Assembly (NCBI GenBank): GCA_030679995.1
Contig: JAUXSK010000018.1
Location: 41,828 to 105,827 of the forward strand
DNA from: Candidatus Moraniibacteriota bacterium
Lineage (GTDB): Bacteria; Patescibacteriota; Minisyncoccia; Moranbacterales; UBA2206
Direction of reading: 5' to 3'
DNA length: 64,000 nucleotides
This document shows, piece by piece, positions 2,020 through 36,222 of this stretch; position 1 is the first letter of the stretch; each line of letters opens with the position of its first letter. The position numbers and the translations under genes are program-made. Below the pieces are notes generated by a model. That model was not told the origin of the DNA. It made no database searches and saw nothing but the letters and a program-made list of their open reading frames with translations.

Positions 2020-2147
2020 ATCCAAAAATTAAAATTACAAGTTCCAAATAAATTGCAATGGCCAAAATTCAAAATTGTTTTAAATTTTGAAAGTTGAGAT
2101 TTAGAATTTATTTGATATTTGTAATTTTGAATTTGTGATTTAAGTTT
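2020..2147. repeat. Full copy (R2) of the ~130-bp AT-rich palindromic intergenic element, filling the gap exactly from stop codon to start codon.
   Basis: The inverted arms AAAATTACAAGTTCCAAATAAATTGCAATG and ATTTATTTGATATTTGTAATTTT flank a central AAAATTCAAAATTGTTTTAAATTTTGAA palindrome. A 10-codon mini-ORF begins at the CAATG. Confidence 0.75.
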
Positions 2148-2834: not shown

Positions 2835-2974
2835 AAATCCAGAATCCAAAATTACAAGCTCCAAATAAATTACAATGTTCAAAATTAAAAAATTCAAAAC
2901 CGTTTTGAATTTTGAAAATTGTAATTTAAATTTTATTTGATATTTGTGATTTTGAATTTGTGATTTAAAATATT
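2835..2974. repeat. Full copy (R3) of the palindromic intergenic element, lying between the two virB4-like ORFs.
   Basis: Same arms and central palindrome as R2. It ends in TATTATG, which provides the start codon of the 604-aa virB4 ORF. Confidence 0.75.
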
Positions 2975-4789: not shown

Positions 4790-4943
4790 GTTTTTATGAT
4801 TTCAAGTTTCAATCTGCCAGCTGGTAGACCAAATTATTCCAAATCAAATCCAAAGATCAAATTAAAAAATAACTTTTGATATATAGGCTTTGAGCTTGAT
4901 TTGGAATAATTTGAGCCTTGAATAATTTGGATTTTAAAAAATT

Positions 4944-5471: not shown

Positions 5472-5483
5472 AACAAAGTTTTT

Positions 5484-6143: not shown

Positions 6144-6149
6144 TTTTTT

Positions 6150-8822: not shown

Positions 8823-8855
8823 ACTATATTTGCCAAAAATACTAATATATCAAAT

Positions 8856-9821: not shown

Positions 9822-9836
9822 CCATCTTTCTATTTT

Positions 9837-16403: not shown

Positions 16404-17174
16404 TTATTTTGCCACGATAACAGCCACGGACGTCTCCTTTTTCTCCATATATCGCTGCTGCAAAATCATAAATACCGTTGAAACCAACCAATAGAGCGCC
16501 AGCCCGGCCGGGAATTTGATTCCGATAAAAAGCGTCAGCAACGGCCCAAGAAACAACATCTGTTTTGTCATCATCTCAGAAAAATCAGGCTCGCCCTGGA
16601 CTGCCGCCTTTATAGGCTGTTTGGCCATCATCATCTTCGTCTGTATGAATTGAGCTCCGGCAGCCAAGATGACCAACAGAATGTGCGGCAAGCTGCCTAA
16701 AGTGAGCCGGCTGAATTCGATAGCGGAGGCCAAATCCACGATGCCGACGAACATTTTATTGATTTGTCCCGGATTGGCGATGAAAGAGTATAATTCAGCC
16801 TGATTGATAATAAGCCCGGCTTGGGAAATATTGAACAAAACCCGGTAAATAGCGATTAAAAAAACCAATTGGGCTATCATCGGCAAGCACCCGGAGAATG
16901 GATTAGAGCCGCTTTCCTTGTATAATTCCATCATAGCCCGGCTTTGCTTTTCTTTGTCATTTTTATATTTACCCTGGATCGCCTTTATCTTAGGCTGCAA
17001 TTCTTGCATTTTTTTCTGCGATTCGATCTGCTTCTTGCTTAGCGGAAACAGCAAAAATTTAATCAATACCGTCAAAATGATGATAGCTACGCCAAAATCA
17101 GGAATTATATTGTAAATAAAAATCAGCAGGTTATAAATCGGATAATAAACGAATGTATCGAATAAAAATGACAT
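16404..17174 (-). CDS. yidC: Membrane protein insertase YidC (short, Gram-positive type).
   Basis: Polytopic protein with conserved YidC core segments. It is adjacent to rnpA. Confidence 0.85.
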   Translation of the reverse strand: MSFLFDTFVYYPIYNLLIFIYNIIPDFGVAIIILTVLIKFLLFPLSKKQIESQKKMQELQPKIKAIQGKYKNDKEKQSRAMMELYKESGSNPFSGCLPMIAQLVFLIAIYRVLFNISQAGLIINQAELYSFIANPGQINKMFVGIVDLASAIEFSRLTLGSLPHILLVILAAGAQFIQTKMMMAKQPIKAAVQGEPDFSEMMTKQMLFLGPLLTLFIGIKFPAGLALYWLVSTVFMILQQRYMEKKETSVAVIVAK

Positions 17175-17554
17175 TATTTTGTTTTTATTGAAGACTTGTC
17201 TTCTTTTATATTTGTTAGCAATTGTCCCAGCGCCAAAACCTCCATTATATTCTTCTTGAAATCGATGCTTCTGGTTTTTTCTTCTTCCCGCTTACGCGCC
17301 ATAATGACTATATCCAAGCCTTTTTTGATGTTTTTCAGTTCAGGCTGGATAATTCCCCGGATTTCTTTCTTAACCTGATTCCTTTCAATCGCTTTTTTTG
17401 AATATTTAAGACCCACCACTATCCCTATCCGCGTGTCCCGCGTGCCATTTTCCATAATTTTAATGGCAATATTCTTTGCAGAAACAAAAATCCCGAATTT
17501 CTGGACCTTTTCGTGATCTTTTTTTCTGGTTAGCCGGTTTTTGAATGGGAGCAT
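17174..17554 (-). CDS. rnpA: Ribonuclease P protein component.
   Basis: 126 aa and basic. The NRLTRKKDHEKVQKFG...RIGIVVGLKYSKKAIERNQVKKEIRGI pattern matches RnpA. It lies between rpmH and yidC. Confidence 0.8.
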   Translation of the reverse strand: MLPFKNRLTRKKDHEKVQKFGIFVSAKNIAIKIMENGTRDTRIGIVVGLKYSKKAIERNQVKKEIRGIIQPELKNIKKGLDIVIMARKREEEKTRSIDFKKNIMEVLALGQLLTNIKEDKSSIKTK

Positions 17555-18020: not shown

Positions 18021-19397
18021 ATGACCAACGAGGAACTTTGGCGGGCCGCTTTAGGGGAAATAGAGCTTTCGATCTCGAAGGCGAACTTCATCACATGGTT
18101 TAAAAACACCTCCATCCTATCAAACAATGATGGTCGCGTCATAATCGGCGTTCCTAACGGATTTGCCAAAGAATGGCTTGAAAACAAATACAATCTCTAT
18201 ATACTCAAAGCTTTGCGAAATATCCAGCCCTCTATAAAAGAGGTTTCTTGCGCCATAGGTTCCGAAAAGGAAAACGCCTTCCGAGAAAACCAGGTCGATG
18301 CGATCATCCCTCCAAAAAGGGTCGTTTTTGAAAAGCCACCGGTCGAAAAAAACTTTCAAATAAGCCAAGAAAATAACCTAAATCCTAAGTATATCTTTGA
18401 GAATTTTATCGTCGGTTCTAGTAATGAGCTGGCTAGGGCGGCCTGCTATGCCGTATCGCAAAATTTGGGCCGTATTTATAATCCGCTTTTCATTTATGGC
18501 GGAGTGGGCTTGGGAAAAACCCATTTATTGCAATCTATCGGCAATGAAATTCTTAAAAAAAATCCTTCCAAGAAAGTAAAATATATCACCTCTGAGCGCT
18601 TCACTAATGAACTGATCGACTCTATCCGGACCCAAAAAATAAACGAATTCAAAGAACATTACCAGAAAATCGACCTTTTAATCATCGACGATGTGCAATT
18701 CCTGTCCGGTAAAGAAAAAACTCAGGAAGAGTTTTTCCATATCTTTAATTACCTGTACCAACTAAACAAACAGATAGTTTTAAGCAGTGACCGCGCACCG
18801 AAAGCTATTCCGACTTTGGAAGAAAGGCTTCGTTCACGCTTTGAAGGCGGGATGATCGCAGATGTTTCCAAAGCTGATTTTGAAACAAGAATGGCTATTT
18901 TAAGCAAAAAGGCGGTTGATGAAGGGTTGACAATTTCCACCACCGCCCTTGATTTTATCGCCCAAAATATCACCCACAACATCCGCGAATTGGAAGGCGC
19001 GCTGAATCGCGTCATCGTCTCGTCGCAACTTACCAACCGGGAACCCACCTTAGATTATGTTTCCGCCCTATTATCAGACATTATCGCCAGTGGCAAAAAA
19101 AAGGGCATAACCCATAAACACATCATCGACGCCGTGTCTTCTTTTTATGATATTGACACCGCTGATTTGATTATGAAGAATAGAAAAAAAGAGGTTGTAA
19201 AACCCCGACAAGTAGCAATGTACCTTATGCGTAGTGAACTCCAATATTCCTACCCGGGAATCGGCGAAAAATTAGGTGGCAGAGACCACACCACCGCTAT
19301 CCATGCTTATGATAAAATATCCAAAGAATTAGAGTTCAATAAAAAACTACTTGAGGACGTCGCTTCTATTAAGGAGCAACTTTACAATATATCCTGA
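18021..19397 (+). CDS. dnaA: Chromosomal replication initiator DnaA.
   Basis: AAA+ Walker A GGVGLGKTHLL, sensor motifs and a C-terminal DnaA-box-binding domain. Confidence 0.95.
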   Translation: MTNEELWRAALGEIELSISKANFITWFKNTSILSNNDGRVIIGVPNGFAKEWLENKYNLYILKALRNIQPSIKEVSCAIGSEKENAFRENQVDAIIPPKRVVFEKPPVEKNFQISQENNLNPKYIFENFIVGSSNELARAACYAVSQNLGRIYNPLFIYGGVGLGKTHLLQSIGNEILKKNPSKKVKYITSERFTNELIDSIRTQKINEFKEHYQKIDLLIIDDVQFLSGKEKTQEEFFHIFNYLYQLNKQIVLSSDRAPKAIPTLEERLRSRFEGGMIADVSKADFETRMAILSKKAVDEGLTISTTALDFIAQNITHNIRELEGALNRVIVSSQLTNREPTLDYVSALLSDIIASGKKKGITHKHIIDAVSSFYDIDTADLIMKNRKKEVVKPRQVAMYLMRSELQYSYPGIGEKLGGRDHTTAIHAYDKISKELEFNKKLLEDVASIKEQLYNIS

Positions 19398-19672: not shown

Positions 19673-20827
19673 ATGAAACTAACTTGTACCCAAGAAAATT
19701 TTAAAAAAGCTGTCTTTAATTCGGAACGGATGGTTTCCAGACAAAACACCTTACCGATTTTAAATAATATTTTATTTGAAACTGAAAACGGGGGATTGAA
19801 ACTTTCTGCCACAAATCTTGAAATTGGGGTTTCCGTCCAAATCGGGGCAAAAATAGAAGAAGAGGGGAAAATAACTATTCCGGCTAAATTAATCAGTAAT
19901 TTCGTTAATAATCTGCCAGCTGGGGAAAATATATCCCTGGAAGTGATAGATCAAAGCCTTAAAATAAAAAGCGGTTCATCCAAAGCTGTAATAAAAGGCT
20001 TGTCAGCAGAGGATTTTCCTTTAATACCGAAAAAACAAACGGATTTCATATTGAATATACCAAGCTTGAAATTAAAAAATATAATTTCCAAGGTTATTAC
20101 ATGCGTGGCTTTTAATGAAACACGCCAAGAATTGACCGGGGTGAATCTTGTTTTAAAGGAAAAAGAAATTTTATTTGCCGCTACGGACAGCTTCCGTTTG
20201 GTCGAAAGCAGTTTGAAACTGGAAGAAGTGAATGTAAGCAGTGTTTATAAAGAATTTTTAGAGAAAAAAAATACATTCATTATTCCGGCAAATACCTTTG
20301 TGGAATTGGCGCGGATAATATCATCGGATATTGAAAGTGATATTAAAATAGTTTTTGAGGAGGGGCAGGTATTTTTTGAAATAGACGGTACGGATGTGGT
20401 TTCCCGCCTGATTAACGGTAAATATCCGGATTATAAACATATCGTGCCGGTAGAATTCAAAACCCGGATAGTGGGTGAAAAAAACATTTTTCAAGGAGCG
20501 CTTAAAATGTCCAGCGTTTTTTCAAGCGGGAAGACTAATGAAGTGGTGCTTAAAATCGATGCTGAGGAAAATAAACTCCTGATCGAAGCTAGGAGCGTAG
20601 AAGTGGGTGAAAACTCTTCAGAGCTCACTGTGGACATCGTGGGGTCATCTCAAGAAGTAGTTTTTAATTCAAAATATTTATTGGACGGGATAAACACGGT
20701 TATGACTTCGAAAGTTGCTATTCTTATGAATAATGCTTCCTCGCCGGTAGCGATCAAGGAAATCGATGAAAAAACCGGAGAAGTTTTAGAAGGGTATGTT
20801 TATATTGTAATGCCGATAAAGAATTAA
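19673..20827 (+). CDS. dnaN: DNA polymerase III beta sliding clamp.
   Basis: About 384 aa with the three-domain clamp pattern, directly downstream of dnaA. Confidence 0.9.
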   Translation: MKLTCTQENFKKAVFNSERMVSRQNTLPILNNILFETENGGLKLSATNLEIGVSVQIGAKIEEEGKITIPAKLISNFVNNLPAGENISLEVIDQSLKIKSGSSKAVIKGLSAEDFPLIPKKQTDFILNIPSLKLKNIISKVITCVAFNETRQELTGVNLVLKEKEILFAATDSFRLVESSLKLEEVNVSSVYKEFLEKKNTFIIPANTFVELARIISSDIESDIKIVFEEGQVFFEIDGTDVVSRLINGKYPDYKHIVPVEFKTRIVGEKNIFQGALKMSSVFSSGKTNEVVLKIDAEENKLLIEARSVEVGENSSELTVDIVGSSQEVVFNSKYLLDGINTVMTSKVAILMNNASSPVAIKEIDEKTGEVLEGYVYIVMPIKN

Positions 20828-21279: not shown

Positions 21280-21597
21280 TTGCTTAAAAGCCGGCTTTTG
21301 ATTATGCTGTATGATATGAAATCGCTTAAAAACTATTTGGTCAAAAGGGATGTTTTTCAACCCAAGACGCTGGATGACCAGACGGTTTTTTATGTTTTCC
21401 GCAAGGTTATCAAGGAGGAATTCGGCAATGTGGGCATTGAAAAGCTGATTCCGGATTATTACAAAAACAAGACGATATTCGTGAAATCAGACAGTTCGGC
21501 TTGGTCTTCGGAGATGTGGCTGCAAAAGGATCGGATCGTGCGCAAGATGAACGCCGAATTGGGCGAAGGATCGATTGAGAAAATCAAAGTCAAATAA
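21280..21597 (+). CDS. DUF721 (DciA-like) protein.
   Basis: IFVKSDSSAWSSEMWLQKDRIVRKMNAELGEGSIEKIKV matches the DUF721 core. It lies near dnaN as in many genomes. The start may be the internal Met at ~21313. Confidence 0.55.
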   Translation: MLKSRLLIMLYDMKSLKNYLVKRDVFQPKTLDDQTVFYVFRKVIKEEFGNVGIEKLIPDYYKNKTIFVKSDSSAWSSEMWLQKDRIVRKMNAELGEGSIEKIKVK

Positions 21598-21634: not shown

Positions 21635-24166
21635 CTAGGGGGTTGAAACGATGTTGGTATGGATCGTGATGTTCGTGTTTTTGGATTTGTCATTTTTATC
21701 AACGGCGACGGCTTTGATTTCCAGGTCGGACGTCTTTTTGCTATCAGGCACGGAATAATCATAGCTTAAAGATGAACCGTTTTTAGAAGAGACTTCGTCA
21801 TCATCGACATATAAGGTTATTTTATCTATATCGAAAGCGGAAGAAGCCGAGACTTTGATTGTGACGGTGTCGGAAGTTATCGTCGCGCCATTGGAGGGTG
21901 AAGTTATTTTCACTTTCGGAGCGATGCTGGAAAAATCATCAGACTCGCATTTTTTGGTAGGTGCTGAATCATTGGAAAGGTTTTTATCTTTCTCGGCATA
22001 TTTCTGGACAGCCTTTTCCCAATTTTTAAATTGCGGATCATCTTCAGGGTCTTTAGGGGCATCTCCGCGCGGATCATCCTTTTTGACATACCATAAGATG
22101 GAATGGGCGGAGAAGAATTTTTTCTTAGTTTTGAGGCTGTCCGGGCAGGCATCGGTAGCTAGGCAGTAGTCGTCGTTTTTACCAGGTATCTCGCAGACCT
22201 CGATTTTTTCTTCCGTGTCAAGCTTGCCATTCAGAATCGGCTTGCCGGCATCTTCCGTTTCATATTTCGGAAATTGTTCCACATTATAGTTTTTCAAAGC
22301 GCCATCCATAAATTTCCGCCAGATCGGAGCGGCCACATAGATTCCGTCAGCCCCCTGGGCCATCGTGGAATTGTCATTGTTGCCAGCCCAGACACCAGCA
22401 ACAAGGGATGGCGTGTAACCCATTGCCCATCCGTCGCGCCATTCATTGGTGGTCCCGGTTTTGGCGGCTACGGGACGGTCAGTGAAATTGAACGGATTGT
22501 TGGTTCCGAAAACCGGAGCGCGCAAGGAATTGGTGGACATTACGTAATCAAGCATAGTCACATATTTTTCGTCGATGACTCTTTGGCCGGGGTCGCTTTG
22601 GTATTCTTCAAGAATTTTTCCGGATGAGTCGGTTATTTTCAAGATAGCGGTTTTGTCATGATGGACTCCGCCGGTAGCTAGGGATCCATAGGCATTCGTA
22701 TGGTCAAGCAAGGTCACTTCGCCGCCGCCCAATACCAAAGAGAGTCCGTAATCGAAGGATTTGTCCAAGGTGGTTATACCAAGCGCCTTGGCAGTCGTAA
22801 TGGAATCCTGGACTCCAGCCAGATAGAGCGTTTGGACAGCAGGAACGTTTAGGGACATCGCTAGCGCATCTTTCATTTGGAGCAGCCCGTGATTTTTCCC
22901 GTCATAATTTTTAGGGTTGTAGCTTTTTCCGGAATCGGTTGAAAAATCGGTGTCTACGTCCCACATTTGGGTTTCCGGAGTATAGCCTTTTTTAAAGGCC
23001 GTCAGATAGACATAGGGTTTGAAGGACGATCCGGGCTGGCGGTTACGGATAGTGACATTGACTTGTCCATCAATGGATTTGTCAAAATAATCCTTGCTGC
23101 CTACCATCGCCAGTATTTGTCCGGTACGCGGATCCATCGCGACCATTGCGGCATTTTCAGCCCCATATTTTTTCGTGTTGGATTCCGCGCCTTCTTTGAC
23201 AGCCTGTTCGGCTAATTGTTGTTTATCCCAATCAAGCGTGGTGTAGACCTTAAGGCCGCCTTGTTCCAATGCTTGCTGCCCATAAGTTTTTTCCAGATAT
23301 TCCTTGATGTACATTACGAAATGTGGCGCGGAAATATTTTCCGAAGACGGCCGTATTTTTGCCAATATATCGACTTCCTTGGCTGCGGCGGCTTGTTCCT
23401 GGGAGATGTAACCGAATTTTTCCATCTGGGTCAGCGCATACAGCTGTCTGCCTCGCAAGGCGTCGGCATTATTTCCATAAGGGGAATAATAGGATGGCGC
23501 TTGGGGCAGGGCGGCTAGAAGGGCGGCCTCATCAAGCGTGAGTTCTGAAGCATGTTTGCCGAAAAAAGTTTGCGCGGCCGCTTCGACGCCATAGGCATTG
23601 GAGCCGTAGGGGATTTCATTGAGGTACATCGCCAATATTTCATCCTTGGAAAATTTAAGCTCGATTTCGATGGCCAGAATCAACTCTTTGATTTTGCGGG
23701 AAAGTGACCTTTCATCGGTAAGGATGGAGTTTTTGACGAATTGCTGGGTAATCGTGGAGCCGCCCCGTCCGCCACCTCGGCGCAAGACGTTTGAAATTAC
23801 GGCATTGGCCAAACCTCGCACATCAAAACCCGGGTGGTGGTAAAAATTCTGGTCTTCCAGGGAAATGGTGGCGTATTTGATGGCATCCGGCATATCGGTG
23901 AATTGGATTTGGGTCCTTTTTTCTTCACCATGGATGTCGTAGAGCAGATGGTCGCCCGTGCGGTCGTAGATTTTAGTCGATTCCGTAACGACCCGTTTGC
24001 TGATTCCATTGGCGCTGGGCAAATCTTTGGCGAAATAGACGAAAATGCCCAAAATCATAAGCACGGAAAGGCCTGTCGCATAAGCGCTGATCCTACCAAA
24101 CATCCGCCAGCGGTTTTTGCTGGAGGTATTTTTGAAATTTCTTAAGGGAGAGAATATTTTGTCCAT
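21635..24166 (-). CDS. Class A penicillin-binding protein (PBP1a, transglycosylase plus transpeptidase) with a C-terminal Ig-like extension.
   Basis: GT51 motif EDQNFYHHPGFDVRG, SxxK transpeptidase motif SSFKPYVY, an N-terminal TM helix and a C-terminal beta-rich tail. Confidence 0.9.
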   Translation of the reverse strand: MDKIFSPLRNFKNTSSKNRWRMFGRISAYATGLSVLMILGIFVYFAKDLPSANGISKRVVTESTKIYDRTGDHLLYDIHGEEKRTQIQFTDMPDAIKYATISLEDQNFYHHPGFDVRGLANAVISNVLRRGGGRGGSTITQQFVKNSILTDERSLSRKIKELILAIEIELKFSKDEILAMYLNEIPYGSNAYGVEAAAQTFFGKHASELTLDEAALLAALPQAPSYYSPYGNNADALRGRQLYALTQMEKFGYISQEQAAAAKEVDILAKIRPSSENISAPHFVMYIKEYLEKTYGQQALEQGGLKVYTTLDWDKQQLAEQAVKEGAESNTKKYGAENAAMVAMDPRTGQILAMVGSKDYFDKSIDGQVNVTIRNRQPGSSFKPYVYLTAFKKGYTPETQMWDVDTDFSTDSGKSYNPKNYDGKNHGLLQMKDALAMSLNVPAVQTLYLAGVQDSITTAKALGITTLDKSFDYGLSLVLGGGEVTLLDHTNAYGSLATGGVHHDKTAILKITDSSGKILEEYQSDPGQRVIDEKYVTMLDYVMSTNSLRAPVFGTNNPFNFTDRPVAAKTGTTNEWRDGWAMGYTPSLVAGVWAGNNDNSTMAQGADGIYVAAPIWRKFMDGALKNYNVEQFPKYETEDAGKPILNGKLDTEEKIEVCEIPGKNDDYCLATDACPDSLKTKKKFFSAHSILWYVKKDDPRGDAPKDPEDDPQFKNWEKAVQKYAEKDKNLSNDSAPTKKCESDDFSSIAPKVKITSPSNGATITSDTVTIKVSASSAFDIDKITLYVDDDEVSSKNGSSLSYDYSVPDSKKTSDLEIKAVAVDKNDKSKNTNITIHTNIVSTP

Positions 24167-24244
24167 AAAATATTATATTTTAAAATACAGCCGAAAGAGG
24201 GTATTTACAGTCATCATCGGAATGCCGTGAAGTCAATTGGTATT

Positions 24245-26200
24245 CTACGATAATTCCGGGTTTTTATCAAGCTCGTCGGCGGGGCTGTTTTCGGATATTT
24301 GAAGTTTATAGCCATCCTTGATTTTATCCCAAATTTTCAAGGCATATCGTGACGGGGTTTTAATTTTAGCCGCGTCAAGAAAACCAAGCTTCGCGAGGGA
24401 GGTGATAGTTTCCAGATTGATGCCTAGATAGGCGTATTTTTCTTTGCCGATAGCTTTTAGCTTGTCCATCAGTAAAAGTTGCTCCAAATAGGCGGTGGCA
24501 TCGCTTCGCGTAAGGATTCCGGACTGCCCTGAAAAACCAGTAGCGCTGTTAAAGAGTCTCTTAACCGATCCGATAGCCGTTTTTAAGCGCAAGTCTACTT
24601 TTTTTTGAAAGTTTTTGTCCGTAATAATCCCAGCGTCCAGCTGGGCCTTTAAAATTTTATAGGCACTATCGTAGAAAGCGGATACACAATCTAAATAATC
24701 TCCGCCTCGCAGCCGGCAAACCATCGCTCGGACGTAATGTGGTATGGGTATCGAACGGGTGCCAAAAGCTTCAGTGGAGATGATGTCCTGCATATGCATC
24801 GCTCCTCCTTCCGCATAGATTCCTCTTCTGTCGCTATTGATGCGGTTGAATAATGTAAGCGGCAGGGCCTCCCTGTTTATTTTTTGAAAAATATGGGCGA
24901 TTTCATGTCCAAGCATAACGGAAATAACGGACTCGACCGTCCTTTTTTTATTTTCAGTGTGTCCCAATTCGTAGACTTTTCGTTTTTGATCAATGTTGTT
25001 CGTTTTAAATTCAGGTCCGGTTACGACTTGCCATTTGCCGTCTGGCGCAGGGTTTTCCCTGGATGGATCATATTCTAAACTTGGATAGACGCTTTTTTCC
25101 TTACAATTTTCCAATAACTCCTCGACCCAGGGGAGATATTGTTCAACGGACATTTTCGCATCGAGAATTTTTTTAGGATCCAGGCCTTTTTTTTGGATGT
25201 TTTCATTTGTGGATAAGGCATTTTCCAAATAAAGCTTTTCTATTTGATCGGCATACCCCTCGATTTCTTTACTGATCTGCTCCCTGTCTCCAGAAGCGTT
25301 GTATTCTTGGGAGGCGCCGTAAATGAATTTATCGAAACGGGCTAGTGTTTTTTCTGGATCGGAAAGTCCATAAAAAAGCTGGATGTCGTCCGGATGCTTT
25401 TTGGCGGGATGGGCTAGGGCGCTTTCTTCTTTTGAAATCGTTTCGTCGCCCAAAATGTCTGCCGTATTTTTGGCGGCTATTCCAAAAAAAACTTGGTTAG
25501 CGATCATTTCATTGACTCTTTTTTTGTAGAGAGTCAATATTTCGCGTAAACCTTCGTTCAGGCCTGAAGATGGCGTCGCGGGAGAACCGAGGCTGGCGAG
25601 TTTTTCCTTGAGAAAATGTTTAAAAATGCGTAGCTGGCTGATTTTTTTTAAAGAAATGTCCGGAGTCAATAGGATAGTGGCTCTTTCCGGCAAGGGCGTC
25701 TCGGGATTGATTCGCAGGCTTCCGTCAACCGCTTTTTGTCGGGAGAGCCTGAGAAAGAAATTATTATCGGAAAAGTTTATGGATCTTCCAAAAAGTTCGG
25801 CGACTTCCTTTGAGGAAACGGTTTTTTCATCAATCAATTGCCTGATAGCTTGGCGGTTTTTCAAGATGGAGGCTGTGACAGCTTGGATCGTTTCCCCGTC
25901 CAATTCTATCCCGGTAGTGGCGAAAAAGTCTTTGCGTCCCGCATCGGATAGGAAATATTCGGGATAGAAAGTATGGCTGACAGATACTAATTTGTAGATA
26001 GTCTCGAAATTTCCCCCTAGTTCATTTTCAAAATCCAGAAGCTCCGCGATTTCTTTTTTAGATAATTCTATTTTTGGCAACTCCCCAGACTCGATTTTCT
26101 CCAAATTTTCAATTTTTTGATCGACGCCAGCCGATGCGCGTTCCGGATACAGTCGAGTTGTTTTTTGGGTTTCAAAATTCATAAAGTCCGAACTAAACAC
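24245..26200 (-). CDS. Large HExxH zinc-metallopeptidase-like protein. It is a putative gluzincin, possibly a DUF1704/MATCAP-type carboxypeptidase.
   Basis: HEIAHIF, with a candidate third zinc-ligand Glu 27 residues later (YAEGGAMHMQ). The DUF1704 assignment is from memory and needs an HMM search. Confidence 0.45.
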   Translation of the reverse strand: MFSSDFMNFETQKTTRLYPERASAGVDQKIENLEKIESGELPKIELSKKEIAELLDFENELGGNFETIYKLVSVSHTFYPEYFLSDAGRKDFFATTGIELDGETIQAVTASILKNRQAIRQLIDEKTVSSKEVAELFGRSINFSDNNFFLRLSRQKAVDGSLRINPETPLPERATILLTPDISLKKISQLRIFKHFLKEKLASLGSPATPSSGLNEGLREILTLYKKRVNEMIANQVFFGIAAKNTADILGDETISKEESALAHPAKKHPDDIQLFYGLSDPEKTLARFDKFIYGASQEYNASGDREQISKEIEGYADQIEKLYLENALSTNENIQKKGLDPKKILDAKMSVEQYLPWVEELLENCKEKSVYPSLEYDPSRENPAPDGKWQVVTGPEFKTNNIDQKRKVYELGHTENKKRTVESVISVMLGHEIAHIFQKINREALPLTLFNRINSDRRGIYAEGGAMHMQDIISTEAFGTRSIPIPHYVRAMVCRLRGGDYLDCVSAFYDSAYKILKAQLDAGIITDKNFQKKVDLRLKTAIGSVKRLFNSATGFSGQSGILTRSDATAYLEQLLLMDKLKAIGKEKYAYLGINLETITSLAKLGFLDAAKIKTPSRYALKIWDKIKDGYKLQISENSPADELDKNPELS

Positions 26201-26294
26201 TAAGTAGTTTAATTATAGGACTATATTATGATTTTTCCAAAAAAAAATAAGCTTGCGAATAGCCCATTGATATTCCGGAGGAGAAGCGCCGGCT

Positions 26295-27239
26295 TTAAAC
26301 ATCCGCCAATCGTCCAAGTGATTGCAAAACGCTTTTTATGAAAACAGCGGAATTTTTCATTTTTTCCGAAGGAAAGCCGATCTGGTCATTCAATTCAAAA
26401 ACGAACGGTTCCGCCCCGTTTTGGACACCAAGATCGATAGAATAGACCGGACGGTTGAATTTTTCATCGATGCGCTCTTGTATTTTTTTCACCCTATCGA
26501 TGATGAATGCCGGGATATTTTCAAGGGGGACTTCTTTGATCGATCCGCCCTGGGCGACATTGGCCAGAAGCGATCCCTCCTTGGGCGCGCGTACATGACT
26601 CAAGACGATTTTGCCATCCGCGATCACTATGCGCAAATCATGGTGGCCATCGATAATCCCGGGGATTCCGCGGGAAGTATCGACAAATTCTTGAAGAATA
26701 TATTCGCGACCCTCTGGGATATCTGCTTGTTTTATTTTTTCCGCGCGATCAATCACGATCCCGTTGCCGCACATCCCGTTGGCGGGCTTGAGCACGACCA
26801 ACGCGGACGGAGAAAATGATTCCAGTTGCCGCAATAGTCCGGCCCTGTCTTTGATCTGGGAGCTTTTGGGCATAAAATCGCCGATAAATTCCTGAGTCGC
26901 ATTTTTATTGTTGCACAATCTTTTAAAATGGATATTATTCAAAGTTTTAGAGCCGGCATCTTCAGTCGGAAAAGACATCCCGCCGCTCCGATCGAAAACG
27001 GCATCCGCCTCGATGCTTTCCGTTTCCGGTTCAAAAAAAATTCCATTATAGCGATAGGCGTTATTGAAGACCAAAGGGCCTGTAGCGTCGGTTTTGCCGC
27101 TGGCGATATACATATCGAAGCCTTCAGCTAAGCCTTGTTTGAAAAAATCATGATAGACGCTCCTTTTCGCATCGAAAGTGGAGAAGGGATCCTTTTCCAT
27201 CTTACGCCTATGGAAATACATCACTATTTTTTTTCGCAT
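26295..27239 (-). CDS. ATP-grasp domain protein (amidoligase).
   Basis: LVVLKPANGMCGNGIVI and YILQEFVD...HHDLRIVIADGKIV are ATP-grasp core motifs. Confidence 0.6.
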   Translation of the reverse strand: MRKKIVMYFHRRKMEKDPFSTFDAKRSVYHDFFKQGLAEGFDMYIASGKTDATGPLVFNNAYRYNGIFFEPETESIEADAVFDRSGGMSFPTEDAGSKTLNNIHFKRLCNNKNATQEFIGDFMPKSSQIKDRAGLLRQLESFSPSALVVLKPANGMCGNGIVIDRAEKIKQADIPEGREYILQEFVDTSRGIPGIIDGHHDLRIVIADGKIVLSHVRAPKEGSLLANVAQGGSIKEVPLENIPAFIIDRVKKIQERIDEKFNRPVYSIDLGVQNGAEPFVFELNDQIGFPSEKMKNSAVFIKSVLQSLGRLADV

Positions 27240-28135
27240 ACGGTTAAATATTCAGCTAATTTTTTAATTTCAGGTGAAATATTGATATCCAGCGTGAGTG
27301 CCGGGCAACTGTTAACCTCGAATATCACAGGACTTCCGTCCGGCCGTTCGATGACATCTACGCCTGCGACCTGGATATGCGTCGTTCGGGCTGCCAAAAC
27401 AGCCTCTTTTTTGATACGGTTTCCGACTGTGGAAATATCGACAAATTCTTCAGTCGCCCCCAAATGCACGTTGTTCCGGAAAGCTTCTTTTTCAGAGCGG
27501 ATTTTTTTCTCAGTTACGGCCACTTTGCTTCCAGTCACAAGGATTCGATATTCAAAATCATTGGGGATGAATTCCTGCAGGAAGATTTCCTTGCGGTCAT
27601 CCTGACTGGATCTTTCCAGGATGATTTTTTCCAGCTCACTGATATTTTTGGCCAAAAAAACACCCGCCCCTTGCGAAGAGTTGCATTCTTTGACTACGAT
27701 CGGCAATTTCAGATATGTTACGGCATTGCGCAGGTGCTTTTTCGGATATGATCCGGCGAAATAAGTCTTGGGAATGGAAATCCCTGCCAACGCCAGGCGG
27801 AACATCTGGGTTATCTTGGCGGCATCGGATGCGTCCTTAGTTTGTTCATGGTAGCGGTCGATCAGATTGACTCCGGATTTTTTCGCTATGTGCGCCAGCA
27901 TATGGGCAACACCCCTGTTCCGGCCGACCTTTCTGATATAAATATTGTTCCAGGATGTCACCGGTTTCCCGCAAATCGACAATCCGACTTTGTTTTTTTC
28001 TATTTGAATTTCGGTCTCTTCTAGACTGGAAACGGAAAAATCCACTCCTTTCCGGGCGAGTTCGGCGCCGGTCAGGCGTAAAAATTTTTTCATTTTCGGT
28101 CCGGTCTTCTTCTTGTTTTTTAATATCAGCAACAT
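27224..28135 (-). CDS. RimK-family alpha-L-glutamate-ligase-like ATP-grasp enzyme.
   Basis: PIVVKECNSSQGAGVFL, LQEFIPNDFEYRILVTGSKV and GVDVIERPDGSPVIFEVNSCP are RimK-like motifs. Confidence 0.7.
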   Translation of the reverse strand: MLLILKNKKKTGPKMKKFLRLTGAELARKGVDFSVSSLEETEIQIEKNKVGLSICGKPVTSWNNIYIRKVGRNRGVAHMLAHIAKKSGVNLIDRYHEQTKDASDAAKITQMFRLALAGISIPKTYFAGSYPKKHLRNAVTYLKLPIVVKECNSSQGAGVFLAKNISELEKIILERSSQDDRKEIFLQEFIPNDFEYRILVTGSKVAVTEKKIRSEKEAFRNNVHLGATEEFVDISTVGNRIKKEAVLAARTTHIQVAGVDVIERPDGSPVIFEVNSCPALTLDINISPEIKKLAEYLTVCEKK

Positions 28136-28171
28136 AAGCGTTTTTAGTTACTTATTATAAAAACGGCTGGG

Positions 28172-29146
28172 TCAAATCTGTTTGTCATCGGAAACTGTCG
28201 TGTTTAATTTCAGGATGAAGTTTATGATGTCCTTGATGACATTCCTGGATTTGCCGTGAGTCGGGTTGTAATGGATATAGATGTCAGGCTTCCCGTTTAT
28301 TTCCAGGATTCCGAATGTCTGAGCGGCAGGATCCTCGGATATATTTTCGCAGATTATGTCGATGCCGGCAAGATAATAGCCGACCGCATCGGCGGCCTTG
28401 ACGCAAATGGAAATAATTTCTTTGTTGATCGAATCCGTGGCATCCCGGGTTTCCCCACCTTCAGCCAGGGAGGAACTTTTTTTGATAGAAACGGCTTCTT
28501 CGGCATCTAGGACGGAATCAAGCGAAAAACCTTGCTCGCGTAAAATTATTTCCAGCGCCCGGTCGATCGGAGTTTTTCGGCGGGTATGCTTCTGTTTTTT
28601 CTGGATGAGGGTGGCTATCGTGGATTTACCATCGCCGATGATTCTCGGCGGAATCATTTCCAGCGCCCCGATAACCTTTTTATCCAGTATGAGGATGCGG
28701 TATTCTTTGCCGAAGATCATTTCCTGGGCGATAAGCGATCTGAAATTCAAAATCTCTTTGATTATGACGGCTTTGGCCTCCTCTGCATTTTTTATGTAAG
28801 GGAAAATACCCTGGCTGTTTGAACCGGCGGAATCTTTGATGATTATGGGGAATTTTAGGTTGTTGAGTTTCTTTTCAACTTCTCCGGGTGTGAAATTTTT
28901 TCTGAAAAAAAAGACCGTAGTCGGCGTGGGAAGCGACTGGCGCCGGAGCAGCGTATAAGTCAGGTCCTTGTACGCCGTTGCGCCAGCGATGCTGATAAAG
29001 TTTTTGGCGATTCTGAATTTTCTTGTGATAAGAAAAGCCTTGCCACCTACGTGGATATAATAACAGCGCCTTTCCGGGATAACTTCTTCGAATGTCCCTC
29101 CCATTTCCTCGACGACTTTCCGGATCAATAAAGTGTTTTTTATCAT
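28172..29146 (-). CDS. ATP-grasp enzyme resembling the N-terminal ATP-grasp domain of cyanophycin synthetase and RimK.
   Basis: FPIIIKDSAGSNSQGIF, IIGDGKSTIATLI and GIDIICENISEDPAAQTFGILEINGKP motifs. Confidence 0.6.
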   Translation of the reverse strand: MIKNTLLIRKVVEEMGGTFEEVIPERRCYYIHVGGKAFLITRKFRIAKNFISIAGATAYKDLTYTLLRRQSLPTPTTVFFFRKNFTPGEVEKKLNNLKFPIIIKDSAGSNSQGIFPYIKNAEEAKAVIIKEILNFRSLIAQEMIFGKEYRILILDKKVIGALEMIPPRIIGDGKSTIATLIQKKQKHTRRKTPIDRALEIILREQGFSLDSVLDAEEAVSIKKSSSLAEGGETRDATDSINKEIISICVKAADAVGYYLAGIDIICENISEDPAAQTFGILEINGKPDIYIHYNPTHGKSRNVIKDIINFILKLNTTVSDDKQI

Positions 29147-30537
29147 TTTTTCACGTCGATTAAAAATTTGTTCAAATTTATCTTCCCGATAATCATCGGA
29201 TATTTCATATGCGATCGGTCGACCAAGGTTATTTTCGTGGGGATGGTTATCGTATCCATAGTGAATTCGATATTGATCATCGGACGGTAGGTGTAGCCAT
29301 TGGATGATTTTACAGGAATGGTGGAAACGATATCCGGAATATCCTTATAAATTTCCCAGCGCTCTTTTTTATCCAATTTCTTCAAATTTTCATAAGGCAT
29401 TTTTAATTTTTCAAATTCATCGATCGTTTTTTCAAAGCCCAGCGTTTTGGCCAGGCTGTCATCGATGGATGACCAGTCGGCGCCCGTGTCGATTTTAGCT
29501 TCCACTTCTATCGTCTTGCCGTCTTTTCCGACCAATTTGATTTTTTCCACGGTGCCGATGACTTTCCGGCCGGAAATTTCCTCGACTTCTTCCTCGATTT
29601 CTCCCCCGAATAGATCCATACCCATCCGCACTCCGCGGGCGATAGTTTTTATTTTGAGGCCGGAAACGCGCCTGAGCCTTTCGGCGAGGCCGGCCAGATT
29701 GGCGACTTGGATGGAAAGTCCCGGGCGGGCATTAAGCTCCAGGATGACTGGGCCGTGATTTTTATCGATAGCCACATCCACGCCTAGGAAGCCCAGATTG
29801 GAAATCTCTTGGGACTTCGAGGCCAGGAGCAGGATATCTTTCCAGTAGGGGATGCGGATGCCGCTGACGGGGAAATTCGTGCCGGGAATTTTTTCAATAA
29901 ATTTATTTTTCCCCTGGATAGCCGTCGTAGTCACTCCGGTGGCCATATCGATTCCGACGCCGACAGCGCCTTGTTGCAGGTTGGCTTTGCCTCCGGATTC
30001 CCGGGTGGGCAGGCGCAACATCGCCATCACTGGGACTTTATTGAAGACGATGACGCGGATATCCGGAATGCCCTTATATGAATAGGGTTTGAATAATTTC
30101 AGAAGCTGCAGGCGCTCTTCAAAAAATGCGATATCCGGCGTGTTGGACAGGGAAAATGAACCGTCCAAAATATTGCGGATGTGGCTGCGCAAATCTTCGA
30201 TAGTGATGAGCGAGCGGTCAGCCTTGACCCATGCGTCATCCCGCCCCTTCTTTTTTCCGTAAACCACGATGATGCCTTCGCCACCAAAACCGCGATTAGG
30301 CTTCAGAGCGAAACTTGAAGGAAGGGATTGCCAATCGAAATTTTCCAAATCTTCGATAGTTTTGATTTTGGCGATCAAGCTCGGCACGGCTATGCCGCTT
30401 TTTTTCAGGACTCGCTTGCTGAGTAACTTGTCGTCAGCCAGCCGTTTGGCCCGAAGCCGATTATACGGGCGAATGAACTCAAGATTTCTTGAGTTCATAC
30501 CGAGAAGCTTTTGGCTGTTTTTGAAAAATTCAAACAT
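29143..30537 (-). CDS. Fusion of an ATP-grasp ligase (alpha-L-glutamate-ligase-related) to a C-terminal retropepsin-like aspartyl-peptidase domain (Pfam 'Zn_protease').
   Basis: N-terminal FALKPNRGFGGEGIIVV...GKANLQQGAVGVGID...ILELNARPG, and C-terminal AKIDTGADWSSID (a DTGA aspartic-protease signature). Confidence 0.65.
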   Translation of the reverse strand: MFEFFKNSQKLLGMNSRNLEFIRPYNRLRAKRLADDKLLSKRVLKKSGIAVPSLIAKIKTIEDLENFDWQSLPSSFALKPNRGFGGEGIIVVYGKKKGRDDAWVKADRSLITIEDLRSHIRNILDGSFSLSNTPDIAFFEERLQLLKLFKPYSYKGIPDIRVIVFNKVPVMAMLRLPTRESGGKANLQQGAVGVGIDMATGVTTTAIQGKNKFIEKIPGTNFPVSGIRIPYWKDILLLASKSQEISNLGFLGVDVAIDKNHGPVILELNARPGLSIQVANLAGLAERLRRVSGLKIKTIARGVRMGMDLFGGEIEEEVEEISGRKVIGTVEKIKLVGKDGKTIEVEAKIDTGADWSSIDDSLAKTLGFEKTIDEFEKLKMPYENLKKLDKKERWEIYKDIPDIVSTIPVKSSNGYTYRPMINIEFTMDTITIPTKITLVDRSHMKYPMIIGKINLNKFLIDVKK

Positions 30538-30540
30538 CGG

Positions 30541-31200
30541 CTAGAGTTTTTTAATAATATCTTTGAAACGGATATATTCGCTCACCCGCAATCCGGTCCA
30601 GCGGCCGATCATAACATTAAAGGGTATGGTGAATAGGATGACCCAGGGATAGGCGACCAAGAGTTTTATCAATGCTCCCCAACTGGCGATATAAAAGCCT
30701 GCTACGGAAATGACCAGGGTTTCAAACGCCAAGATGAGCGCGGTCTTATTGCCTTTTTCAATTTGCACGGCGACGAATTTTTCTACCAGCGTGATCATAA
30801 TCAAAATAGGGAAAATTGAAACGGAAGCCAGTCCGGTCCTGCGCAGGTTGCCGCCGAAAACAAGCAACAATAGGATTAAAACGGCAACGACGGTCAACAT
30901 TATGGCGACACGGGGAAGGTAGAGGAGCCGGAAGGGCTTGAGGATGAAGCGCATCAGCATCCCGATGAAAATGACCGCTAAAAAAATCGCCACGCCATAA
31001 CGCAATCCGTTAGTAGCCAGGAAGGCGAAGGTGATGATAAGGGGCGTGTAGATGCCAAAAGCTTTGATACCGACGACTTGGCGCAAGAAAGCGATCAAAG
31101 TCGCGATAATCGGCAACATCAGGATTAAGATGATCGTTTCAAAAGGCACGCCTTCGATAAGGAAAAAACGGATTATGGGGCTGATGTTCAAGTCCATCAA
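30541..31200 (-). CDS. 7TM membrane protein, first gene of the ATP-grasp cassette. It may be related to the 7TM modules linked to RimK-like ligases.
   Basis: Seven predicted hydrophobic helices in 219 aa. It is spaced 4 nt from the next gene on the same strand. Confidence 0.5.
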   Translation of the reverse strand: MMDLNISPIIRFFLIEGVPFETIILILMLPIIATLIAFLRQVVGIKAFGIYTPLIITFAFLATNGLRYGVAIFLAVIFIGMLMRFILKPFRLLYLPRVAIMLTVVAVLILLLLVFGGNLRRTGLASVSIFPILIMITLVEKFVAVQIEKGNKTALILAFETLVISVAGFYIASWGALIKLLVAYPWVILFTIPFNVMIGRWTGLRVSEYIRFKDIIKKL

Positions 31201-34227: not shown

Positions 34228-36222
34228 TTATAAGGCCAGGGTGATTTTGTTTAGAAAAGAACTTATTTTTATATTCAGGTTTTCCAGCAATGTGATAGCC
34301 CAGTGTTTGCGCGCGGGAAAATTTTCAAAAGCATAATCGGGTTGCAAGCGCGGGTTTTCCCCGGCGAAGGCTTGGGCGGTGCTGATGTGAAGGCCGAAAT
34401 TGATGAAGGAAAACCTGGTTTTTTGTCTGTTTTCCCAATCGGGCGAAGGCGATGATTGGCCGAGATCCTTCGCGGTTTCCGGAGTGGGAAGAATTTCTTC
34501 TTGGATTTTTTCTTCGACGATTCCAGTCGCCGTATTATTTTCCGCGGGAGTCGCCAAGGGGCTTGGCTCTTTTTCGGCCGGCGTTATGACGGCTGGGATG
34601 TTCCATTTCCAGCCGGACTTGGTTTTTACATAGGTCGCGCCTTCGGCGACGGATTTCTTTTTGTCGCCATAGCTGACGTGCGAAGCGGTTTTACCGTTCG
34701 GATAGCGCAGTTCTATTTTTCCTTTGGTATTCGGCAAAGTGAATTTCGAAACGGCATAGGTGATTTTGGCGGCTTTACCGTCTTTTATGAAAAAATCTTC
34801 CGTAATCGGATGATTGGATAATGTCTTTGTTCCGCTGGCGATGCTCCAATTTTTAAGGTTGATTTTCTTTTTAGTGTTATTTTTAATATTCAAAAATTCC
34901 GCGCCGGTATCGGCTCCGTCCGGATTAGGCGAGAGGCTGATTATTTTGACATCCAGCTTGGGAAATTTTTCCACTTCGATTTTGAAAGTGTCGATTTTGT
35001 CCTCGCTGCCATCAGAAACTTTTAGCGTCACTTTATATTCGCCGGTCTTTTCATATTTGTGGCGGGTTTTTTGCAAATAACTCTTGTGTCCGTCGCCGAA
35101 ATCCCAAGTATATTTCAAATTATCTTTATCTTTATCAGAGCCTTTGGCGGAAAATTCGGCATAAGTATTCACATAAACTTTTTCCGGAACTTCATCTTTG
35201 ACTTGGGGAAAGTTGTTGAAAATATTTTCCGCGCCCGGTGTTAAAAATTTACTCCAGCGCCAATTTTTTCCGTCGAAGTTGTAGGAAATATTTTGTTTAG
35301 CGCTTTTGTAATCGATCGTGGAAATTGTTTTTCCATCCGGGGAATAAAGCGTGACCGATTCCGAACCGGAATTGTTCAGGGCGAACTTGAAATCCTTTTT
35401 ATGAATTACAAGATAGCTTTGTGATTCTAAAGATGTGTTTTTGGGAAAAACATACTTTCCGCTCTTGGAGGCATCATGCAATATCCAGCCGGAAAGATCG
35501 ATTGGCAGTTCTTCCGGATTGTATAATTCGATGAATTCTTCACCGTCGGTTGAGGGATAGGGAAGCAGCTCGTTCAGAGTCAGTTTTTCTGAGTATGCTT
35601 CAGATTCTTCGGGCGGTGAGGTGACCTCCACATCTTGACCGGTAAAATTTTCTATTCCAGGGGTTCCATTATTAACGTAGCTTTCTTGCCAAATATCGTC
35701 GTCTAAATCGAATTCCAAGGTTTTTTTATTTCCATTGGCCCCCATCGTTTTGTCATAAGAAGTGCCAGCCGACCATGTCTTGCAACGATCAAAACTGATT
35801 TTTATTCCAGCCTGTGTATTATTTAGATTTAAGACCGAATCTGATAATGTTCCTGCATAATCAGGATGATCATTTATAAAATCATTTTTATTATCCGCGA
35901 TTATAACATATTCTTTCGAGGCCATATTTAAATCAGAATCAAACGTATGGCAGGTGTTTTTTAATTTTCCGTTAGCATCGCGTTCTTCTTTTTCATCGAT
36001 AAGCCCTAATGAATTTTTCGGAATATTTATTTTCGAACCGGACGCGTTAAAAATTTCAATCCATTCCCTCCCGGTATCGCTGCCATCAAGGTCGTACATT
36101 ATTTCGGTGATAATCAGATCGGCAGAAATTTCATCGGCGGAAAGTTTTTCTGAAAGAATAAAAAACCCTGTCAATAAACAGGGTAAAAAAGCGGCCAGAT
36201 AGATTTTGCGTTTGTTTTTCAC
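34228..36222 (-). CDS. Secreted protein with three lamin-tail domains (LTD) and a PKD domain.
   Basis: LIITEIMYDLDGSDTGREWIEIFN, LNELLPYPSTDGEEFIELYNPEELPIDLSGW and IISLSPNPDGADTGAEFLNIKN are LTD motifs. YTWDFGDGH...YKVTLKVSDG is a PKD domain. An N-terminal signal peptide is present. Confidence 0.6.
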   Translation of the reverse strand: MKNKRKIYLAAFLPCLLTGFFILSEKLSADEISADLIITEIMYDLDGSDTGREWIEIFNASGSKINIPKNSLGLIDEKEERDANGKLKNTCHTFDSDLNMASKEYVIIADNKNDFINDHPDYAGTLSDSVLNLNNTQAGIKISFDRCKTWSAGTSYDKTMGANGNKKTLEFDLDDDIWQESYVNNGTPGIENFTGQDVEVTSPPEESEAYSEKLTLNELLPYPSTDGEEFIELYNPEELPIDLSGWILHDASKSGKYVFPKNTSLESQSYLVIHKKDFKFALNNSGSESVTLYSPDGKTISTIDYKSAKQNISYNFDGKNWRWSKFLTPGAENIFNNFPQVKDEVPEKVYVNTYAEFSAKGSDKDKDNLKYTWDFGDGHKSYLQKTRHKYEKTGEYKVTLKVSDGSEDKIDTFKIEVEKFPKLDVKIISLSPNPDGADTGAEFLNIKNNTKKKINLKNWSIASGTKTLSNHPITEDFFIKDGKAAKITYAVSKFTLPNTKGKIELRYPNGKTASHVSYGDKKKSVAEGATYVKTKSGWKWNIPAVITPAEKEPSPLATPAENNTATGIVEEKIQEEILPTPETAKDLGQSSPSPDWENRQKTRFSFINFGLHISTAQAFAGENPRLQPDYAFENFPARKHWAITLLENLNIKISSFLNKITLAL

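Follow-up and report, generated by a model that had tools for sequence, protein, structure and literature searches.

In a window of 64,000 nucleotides (nt) from a Candidatus Moraniibacteriota bacterium (assembly GCA_030679995.1, contig JAUXSK010000018.1), six tightly packed and co-oriented open reading frames (ORFs) on the minus strand at 24245-31200 form a cassette that encodes, in gene order, a seven-transmembrane (7TM) protein, four ATP-grasp ligases, here called AG1 to AG4, and a HExxH metallopeptidase, with AG1 fused to a retropepsin-like protease domain. We propose, and give the proposal about an even chance of being right, that the cassette is a membrane-associated and ribosome-independent system for amino-acid tailing or polymerisation and trimming, which represents a modular variant of the RloABC and RimBK types. 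Domains were called by Pfam and NCBIfam model searches of the window proteins, and 36 related loci (L numbers below) were searched with the window proteins by phmmer and BLAST, to which gene calls on further contigs were added; a wider metagenome scan with one alignment contributed nine loci, several of them duplicates. A first-pass annotation of the same DNA had predicted the six ORFs, all of which are present, and its assignment of a 7TM protein, an ATP-grasp with a DTGA retropepsin, a CphA-like, a RimK-like and a further ATP-grasp protein is upheld by Pfam and NCBIfam; the synthesis and trimming of a peptide, which it had suggested, is plausible by analogy with known systems. It had also described 4-nt overlaps or gaps throughout; the packing is tight, with overlaps of 4 nt (AG1/AG2) and 16 nt (AG3/AG4) and with gaps of 3 nt (7TM/AG1), 36 nt (AG2/AG3) and 112 nt (AG4/HExxH). 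The locus tags Q8L11_02850-02865 cover four of the genes and the remainder are adjacent entries; the HExxH protein, AG4 and AG2 are currently annotated as 'hypothetical'.

The 7TM and AG1 genes constitute a conserved core that, on sequence comparison, is widespread in Moranbacteria and Parcubacteria. The order yebC-ruvC-7TM-AG1-[variable genes]-PBP1A, which ends in the gene of a class A penicillin-binding protein (PBP), recurs in no fewer than 12 genomes or contigs that are independent of one another, and the core pair is 61-98% identical across at least 12 loci. The ratio of non-synonymous to synonymous substitution rates (dN/dS) ranges from 0.017 to 0.29 across the genes, and by this measure every cassette gene is under purifying selection. 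The gene arrangement is more than chance, because the order recurs in these genomes and contigs and dN/dS is well below 1 everywhere. The 7TM gene (30541-31197) most likely starts with the ATG at 31197, as judged from homologue alignments, and encodes a polytopic protein of 218 amino acids (aa) with an RloB-type 7TM module. It matches PF14402 (7TM_transglut) with 109 bits over profile positions 58-247 and the RloB model NF052267 only in its C-terminal part (positions 313-507, 88 bits, cut-off 900), and it contains no inactive-transglutaminase domain. The best 120 of its 1720 homologues are all about 218 aa long and 72-100% identical, its dN/dS against L002 is 0.08, and its AlphaFold 2 (AF2) model has a mean predicted local distance difference test score (pLDDT) of 74.

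The second core gene, AG1 (29143-30537), encodes a 464-aa fusion of an ATP-grasp ligase with a C-terminal retropepsin. The ligase domain (29608-30537, about aa 1-310) is of the RloC type and reaches 233 bits with PF14397 (ATPgrasp_ST, cut-off 31) and 297 bits with TIGR02291 ('alpha-L-glutamate ligase-like'), slightly under the hypothetical-equivalog cut-off of 314. Its E-x-N magnesium site is LELN at aa 266, and its dN/dS against L002 is 0.017. More than 6296 homologues of AG1 were retrieved, the top 120 of which are 68-100% identical and nearly all of the two-domain form. The retropepsin domain (29143-29568, aa 327-461) is of the RimB/RloA type; it carries the catalytic DTGA at aa 350 of AG1 (29479-29490) and scores 42 bits with PF05618 (Zn_protease/RimB-like, cut-off 27) and 30-44 bits with the NCBIfam models of RloA and RloA3 (cut-offs 210-280). 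It is not a RimB equivalog, because NF052261 gives 24 bits where 200 are required. The domain has no signal peptide and is attached to the C-terminus of a cytoplasmic ligase. Ligase and protease are joined by a Glu-rich linker, GGEIEEEVEEISG (29569-29607, aa 311-323), which is kept with conservative substitutions only in 12 of 12 aligned loci (core consensus GGE[IV]EEx[VL]ExxSG), although the retropepsin immediately downstream is highly variable. As the proteases RimB and RloA cut Glu-rich sequences, this linker may, by analogy, be an autoprocessing site for self-cleavage or a pseudosubstrate site.

The three remaining ligases belong to different branches of the ATP-grasp superfamily. AG2 (28172-29146) is a stand-alone ATP-grasp of the clade that comprises the cyanophycin-synthetase G domain, Ngg and the C-terminal domain of GshAB; it matches TIGR02068 with 175 bits over model positions 212-473 (cut-off 850), and its scores with NF002688 (129 bits) and TIGR03103 (92 bits) are far under the equivalog cut-offs. 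A Mur-ligase-like M domain was found nowhere in the cassette. AG3 (27224-28135) is a RimK-family ATP-grasp, with 89 bits for PF08443 (RimK), 95 bits for TIGR00768 (cut-off 143) and 62 bits for NF007764 (cut-off 331); the Pfam search gave no Rimk_N match. AG4 (26295-27239) is divergent and shows weak similarity to GSH-S_ATP (PF02955, 34 bits) and RimK (PF08443, 30 bits). The E-x-N magnesium motif is intact in all four ligases, being LEIN at aa 281 in AG2, FEVN at aa 272 in AG3 and FELN at aa 281 in AG4. The highest identity in pairwise BLAST comparisons of AG1 to AG4 is 28% over 82 residues, apart from short fragments of up to 42 residues that reach 33%. Given this low identity, the four ATP-grasps are by their sequences old paralogues of different subfamilies and no recent duplicates, a point that the first-pass annotation had raised for checking. 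Assignment to core metabolism, which it had named as grounds for refutation, namely to D-Ala-D-Ala ligase (Ddl), PurK or carbamoyl-phosphate synthetase (CPS), was rejected, as the matches are marginal (15-35 bits against cut-offs in the hundreds) and the matches to RimK, RloC and the CphA G domain are far stronger. A graspetide system, in which an ATP-grasp enzyme matures a ribosomally synthesized and post-translationally modified peptide, was likewise considered and rejected, since the maturase model TIGR04187 gives only 21 bits for AG3 and no precursor ORF fits the gaps. No conserved small ORF for a precursor peptide, which the first-pass annotation had suggested looking for nearby, was found in the intergenic gaps (3, 36, 78, 87 and 112 nt); gaps of 3-112 nt, the largest of which shrinks to 56 nt in L002, leave no room for one.

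What lies between the core and PBP1A differs from relative to relative. The related cassettes hold one to three accessory ligases, which cluster into at least six orthogroups, with or without an acetyltransferase of the GNAT family and with or without the HExxH gene. The series AG2-AG3-AG4-HExxH is shared by the window, L001 and L002; L008 and L028 have AG2-GNAT-HExxH-AG4, L013 has AG2-GNAT-HExxH, L011 and L031 have AG3-AG4-HExxH, and L012, L017 and L030 have an AG4-like gene and one of another group, followed by HExxH. Three ligases without HExxH are present in L025 and L027, and a single ligase without HExxH in L026. The AG2 orthogroup occurs in eight loci, with a GNAT gene next to it in L004, L008 and L013, the AG3 orthogroup is restricted to the window, L001, L002 and L011/L031, and the AG4 orthogroup occurs in nine loci, some of which lack the HExxH gene. 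A row of four ligases, which had at first seemed exceptional, is thus one end of a range, as relatives carry two to four ligases per cassette. Likewise, the six genes do recur in order, but rather than one fixed cassette they are a two-gene core followed by a variable, recombining block in which the HExxH gene is optional.

The recombination can be read from the DNA identity between the window and L002. A sliding comparison gives 79-97% identity (mostly about 90-97%) for the 7TM gene together with the ligase domain of AG1; the value then falls abruptly from about 90% to about 61% at 29528, just past the linker and before the DTGA motif, stays at 46-81% (mostly 46-77%) through AG2 to AG4 and the HExxH gene, and returns to 81-91% in the PBP gene. 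The sharp breakpoints, at about 29528 on a domain boundary inside the AG1 gene and at about 24050-24200 near the boundary of the HExxH and PBP1A genes, delimit a mosaic block (24200-29528) of the retropepsin domain, AG2, AG3, AG4 and the HExxH gene. The synonymous divergence (dS) from L002 amounts to 0.37-0.47 for the 7TM gene and the ligase domain of AG1 and to 0.89 for PBP1A, as compared with 1.2-2.5 in the block; within it, the retropepsin domain has a dS of 1.2-1.8 against 0.4-1.0 in neighbouring genes. As dS in the block lies above that of its flanks, the block has a deeper ancestry, which points to recombinational replacement and not to mere decay. The replaced segment differs in extent between pairs of loci. 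In the comparison with L001 the replacement is confined to the retropepsin domain (about 300 bp), with 43-51% identity on a background of about 80-86%, and in L025 the retropepsin and AG2 are closer to the window than the flanking genes are. By these patterns, proteases and accessory ligases are exchanged as modules, and their exchange as one block fits matched specificities of ligase and protease.

The last gene of the cassette encodes a cytoplasmic gluzincin of an unannotated family. Its start is most likely the ATG at 26182, in agreement with NCBI entry MDP1833847.1 and with homologue starts, and the protein (24245-26182) therefore has 645 aa in place of the 651 aa first given. The zinc motif is HEIAH at aa 426-430 (24893-24907), and the third ligand, E458, is found in AEGGA (24800-24814), 27 residues beyond the second His, as the first reading of the sequence had it. 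A word-indexed search recovered six relatives only, and a profile search of 1.84 billion representatives yielded 453 clusters, most of them of 590-650 aa. In 123 full-length members H426, E427, H430, E458 and Y565 are invariant, as one would expect if the enzyme is an active gluzincin with a transition-state Tyr. The zinc motif reads HExxH in 76 of 148 members and HExxxH in 72 of 148 (mostly HE[IV]EGH) at the same aligned position, and the third-ligand Glu always stands in xExGA. A one-residue indel between two zinc-binding His residues within one family is unusual.

Structure modelling placed this protein, by its fold, close to a human enzyme that trims tubulin. Its AF2 model (pLDDT 78, predicted template modelling score 0.76) is predicted to have a gluzincin catalytic fold like that of MATCAP, which is the top fold match (13% identity), followed by M32 carboxypeptidases; a Foldseek search of the model against the PDB returned nothing. 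The HExxH protein had been suggested to belong to PF08014 (DUF1704), the family of MATCAP. This suggestion was not borne out, as PF08014 does not match the protein at E<=0.01, nor even at E<=1, and of 73 relatives no more than 2 match it, both sub-threshold with a best E-value of 1.9e-4. The protein has no Pfam or NCBIfam match either, and the NCBIfam library presumably includes DUF1704-type models. Since HMMER does not detect the relation beyond these two sub-threshold cases, we regard the proteins as a new family outside PF08014 with, according to the model, a carboxypeptidase fold like those of MATCAP and M32. We found no account of DUF1704 or QEGLA proteins in bacteria in the literature searched. 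In species-representative genomes, 15 of 17 loci of the family are labelled Moranbacteria, Parcubacteria, Peribacteria or Saccharibacteria. The two others, L011 (CAYQPQ010000008.1) and L018 (CAYUKQ010000012.1), come under the labels Bdellovibrionales and Gammaproteobacteria; of these, L011 shows the complete synteny of the Moranbacteria type and was probably binned or labelled wrongly.

The peptidase genes keep similar company in distant lineages. By our own count, they stand beside ligase, CofE or retropepsin genes in about 14 of 20 informative loci. In the Saccharibacteria loci L022 (8999-12149), L024 (8876-12386) and L036 (1708-5472), distant homologues adjoin canonical rimB and rimK genes, the latter encoding Rimk_N plus RimK domains with 178-201 bits, and in L023 (1-3926) a homologue lies beside a RimB::ATP-grasp hybrid and RimK. 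No description of this three-gene HExxH-RimB-RimK arrangement was found in the Rim literature consulted. A lone ATP-grasp gene is the neighbour in L009, and in L004 (1003-1503), L008 (9470-9934) and L013 (9285-9749) a GNAT acetyltransferase of 154-166 aa is encoded between AG2 and the HExxH gene. In L015 the HExxH gene is preceded by a homologue of the CofE-like F420-0:gamma-glutamyl ligase (123 bits, 8976-9695), in a bacterial group that is not expected to make F420. The association of peptidase and ligase is thus frequent and crosses class boundaries; it is facultative and not obligatory.

The closest known relatives of the core are the RloABC and RimBK systems. That ligases of this kind pair with retropepsins and 7TM_transglut proteins, as invoked from the start for this cassette, is documented for them. 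In Pseudomonas aeruginosa RloABC, secreted retropepsins cut Glu-rich peptides, and a deletion of rloB or rloC relieves the defects that the loss of three proteases causes (Lormand et al. 2025, PMC12239564). From this suppression it follows that the ligase and the 7TM protein make something that the protease must remove. The cassette shares with RloABC the RloC-type ATP-grasp, the RloB-type 7TM module and the RimB/RloA-type retropepsin. It differs in that its 7TM protein lacks the periplasmic inactive-transglutaminase domain, that its retropepsin is non-secreted and fused to the ligase via the Glu-rich linker, whereas RloA is stand-alone with a signal peptide, and that it adds one to three ATP-grasp ligases, with or without a GNAT enzyme and the MATCAP-like peptidase. 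Moreover, its host is a bacterium of the candidate phyla radiation, while 96% of RloB hits are from Proteobacteria (PMC12239564). The cassette is therefore a variant of RloABC and no member of it, because the transglutaminase domain and the secreted protease are missing. As for the Rim systems, RimK synthesises poly-alpha-Glu and adds tails to RpsF, poly-Glu is a substrate of both RimB and RloA, and RimB removes the RpsF tail. The cassette resembles RimK, RimB and the RimBK hybrid (Pseudomonas fluorescens, Desulfotalea psychrophila; PMC11957791) in pairing or fusing an ATP-grasp ligase with a retropepsin and in its RimK-family AG3. However, the protease is N-terminal to a RimK-type ligase in RimBK and C-terminal to an RloC-type ligase in AG1 (PMC11957791), the Rim systems have neither a 7TM partner nor a zinc carboxypeptidase, and AG3 is under the TIGR00768 cut-off and lacks Rimk_N.

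The accessory genes have their own counterparts. AG2 aligns with the ATP-grasp G domain of CphA1 and with the Ngg and C-terminal GshAB ATP-grasps, each of which lengthens a short peptide or a polymer by an amino acid at its C-terminal carboxylate. In relatives, the GNAT gene beside AG2 parallels the fusion of GNAT and ATP-grasp in Ngg, whose operon also holds a peptidase (TIGR03103-03105). In contrast to CphA1 and Ngg, both the N and the M domain are absent from AG2, an amidotransferase partner is missing, and the window has no GNAT gene. MATCAP/TMCP (KIAA0895L, PF08014) is distinguished by HExxxH followed by EEG, DPP III being the classical HExxxH enzyme (PMC10499314); about half of the peptidase family has the HExxxH spacing, and its third-ligand Glu may stand in a motif of the same xEG type. 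The window protein itself has the canonical HExxH spacing and is about twice as long as MATCAP owing to an extra helical half of about 330 aa, which brings it nearer to the size of M32 and DUF885 proteins; to the M32 (Taq-type) and DUF885 families it has no sequence-level match. M32 enzymes, for their part, are carboxypeptidases of broad specificity with housekeeping roles and are not known from ligase operons.

Taken with the retained catalytic residues (E-x-N in four ligases, DTGA in the retropepsin and H-E-H-E-Y in the peptidase), these comparisons let us propose a chemistry, an acceptor, a product and a place for the 7TM protein. The core ligase AG1, held at the cytoplasmic face of the membrane, would add acidic, Glu-type residues to a carboxylate acceptor, for which a free peptide under elongation, the C-terminus of a protein or a precursor of the envelope are candidates. 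Accessory ligases would extend, cap or prime the chain with other residues, and in some relatives the GNAT enzyme might acetylate it. The fused retropepsin would cut Glu-rich stretches endolytically and the MATCAP-like enzyme would strip residues singly from the C-terminus. The outcome would be a set length and amount of an anionic peptide that may be relevant to the envelope or to osmotic balance.

Several observations weigh against this proposal. No activity, substrate or product is on record for RloC, RloB or the HExxH family, and the presumed preference for Glu is carried over from RimK, RimB and RloA, to which identity is 24-31%. A fold search of the 7TM protein against the PDB gave no informative match and no hint of export, anchoring or sensing. 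The window encodes no poly-Glu target or precursor peptide and, with an Escherichia coli S6 query, no rpsF/S6-like ORF. The likeness of the peptidase to MATCAP is, according to the model, one of fold only; phmmer and hmmsearch against PDB sequences, with profiles of 7 and 123 sequences, returned noise in which MATCAP was absent. Its coupling to the ligases is facultative, since the gene is missing from many otherwise complete cassettes (L025-L027), stands alone without such a partner in about six loci and possibly has its own promoter. The adjacency of PBP1A, finally, may be an inherited order near oriC with no functional link.

Four other explanations were weighed against this proposal. The first is a sub-case of it that commits to a protein acceptor: the cassette would reversibly tail the C-terminus of one protein, such as S6, FtsZ or an envelope enzyme, as a bacterial 'tail code' comparable to TTL/TTLL and MATCAP. 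The precedent of RimK and RimB on RpsF speaks for it, as do the tubulin tail carboxypeptidase as the nearest solved fold of the peptidase, the Saccharibacteria relatives beside canonical RimB and RimK, and a weak TTL-family match of AG3 (24 bits). Yet a target candidate is absent in and near the cassette, the 7TM partner and the genetics of rloB and rloC indicate a membrane or envelope product and not a ribosomal one, and a single target would hardly need up to four ligases that differ between close relatives. We consider such a protein-specific tail unlikely.

Modification of peptidoglycan precursors, which we judge to be similarly unlikely, would have the ATP-grasps add side-chain or cross-bridge residues to the stem peptide in the cytoplasm, with the HExxH protein as a stem-peptide carboxypeptidase and the 7TM protein as a link to lipid-II handling beside PBP1A. 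The enterococcal D-aspartate ligase is an ATP-grasp that adds a cross-bridge residue to the stem peptide, and cross-bridge chemistry generally differs among closely related bacteria, much as the set of accessory ligases does in this case. In every syntenic locus the class A PBP gene directly follows the cassette, and no strong terminator precedes the end of this gene, the sole strong terminator-like hairpin on the cassette strand being located after it; in L027, FemAB and Mur-ligase genes follow a few genes downstream of PBP1A. Pseudomonas rlo mutants show phenotypes in cell shape, with beta-lactams and under hypo-osmotic conditions, and the rlo operon of Vibrio is responsive to a regulator of cell-wall integrity. 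Against this stand the best hidden Markov model matches, which are to the RimK, RloC and CphA-G/Ngg clades while Ddl-type matches are weak (18-33 bits), the inversion of the PBP gene in L014, and the Saccharibacteria peptidase homologues, which sit with RimB and RimK and not with cell-wall genes. The PBP adjacency itself may be the inherited order of one lineage near oriC.

Another explanation separates the accessory block from the 7TM/AG1 core and lets it make a small molecule: a short and sometimes N-acetylated peptide, like N-acetylglutaminylglutamine amide, or a gamma-glutamyl tail, which would serve as an osmolyte or cofactor tail and be recycled by the HExxH protein. The clade of AG2, which includes the Ngg ATP-grasp and the C-terminal domain of GshAB, points this way, together with the AG2-GNAT-HExxH triads in L004, L008/L028 and L013, the CofE-like ligase beside the peptidase in L015 and the promoter-like site upstream of the HExxH gene. 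This explanation appears quite unlikely, as the window has no GNAT or amidotransferase gene, the accessory genes always lie between the core and PBP1A and recombine with the retropepsin domain of the core, and all equivalog scores are far under the cut-offs. That the genes are adjacent without a common function, with the HExxH protein as a housekeeping peptidase and the ligases as unrelated neighbours in a compact genome, is very unlikely: homologues do stand alone beside sigma factor, ABC transporter, AlaRS and Fic genes in several loci, and many cassettes lack the gene, but peptidase genes of the family accompany ATP-grasp, CofE or retropepsin genes repeatedly, in distant classes and with varying gene order, the protease genes are exchanged in one block with the ligase genes, and the junctions are tight or overlapping.

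Regarding its genomic context, the cassette is followed by the class A PBP gene, then by DciA (21280-21597, plus strand), dnaN (19673-20827, plus strand) and dnaA (18021-19397, plus strand), with rnpA (17174-17554) and yidC (16404-17174) on the minus strand, opposite to dnaA. This neighbourhood places the cassette only about 5-12 kb from oriC, in agreement with the cumulative GC-skew minimum at about 18-20 kb of the window. The 112-nt gap before the HExxH gene contains a promoter-like site, TTGGAA-17-TATAAT (26212-26240, minus strand), and this gene may have a promoter of its own. The site is a consensus match, with 10 of 12 positions, and the top-scoring one of the region. An anti-phage defence function of the variable block was rejected, as PADLOC models gave zero matches at E<=0.01 for any of the six proteins. 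On the other side, the cassette is preceded by ruvC, yebC and the gene of a TrmB-type regulator. Upstream of the regulator gene and yebC, a 664-aa protein with three lamin-tail domains and a PKD domain is encoded (34228-36222, minus strand), which in L025-L027 is directly upstream of yebC; a 1011-aa protein with two tandem T2SSE (type II/IV secretion ATPase) domains (39877-42912, minus strand, 757 bits) is likewise encoded on this side, and its gene is also kept upstream of the cassette region in L025-L027. Type-IV-secretion or conjugation-like genes occupy 1-10973 of the window, including an SLT lytic transglycosylase (8856-9821), large proteins without a Pfam match (6150-8822 and 9837-10973) and a VirB4/TraG-like ATPase (2975-4789). 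The latter ends in …FDDEEE, the only acidic C-terminal tail in the window, which is probably irrelevant here.

The cassette adds to the known Rlo-type systems a compact version, with the protease fused to the cytoplasmic ligase, that is among the most conserved genes of its locus; no account of this system or of RimK-type systems in Patescibacteria was found in the literature searched. New is also a peptidase family of about 450 clusters, almost only from bacteria of the candidate phyla radiation, with a predicted MATCAP-like fold and a recurrent linkage to ligases. For proteins now labelled 'hypothetical', this provides a testable annotation, and the natural variants, which differ in their ligases and in whether they have the peptidase, form a comparative panel for expression and mass spectrometry directed at the Rlo-type product. 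For the bacterial ancestry of the eukaryotic machinery of tubulin tailing and trimming, the linkage of a MATCAP-like family to ligases of the glutamate type is relevant. A further extension, which we hold to be quite doubtful, is that the accessory block is a combinatorial 'tail code' shuffled by recombination, in which sets of stand-alone ligases write lineage-specific C-terminal tails on a protein or envelope acceptor and the retropepsin, exchanged along with them, and the MATCAP-like enzyme erase these tails. If true, the block would be a prokaryotic counterpart, and possibly the evolutionary source, of the TTL/TTLL-MATCAP cycle of tubulin tails in ultra-small episymbionts.

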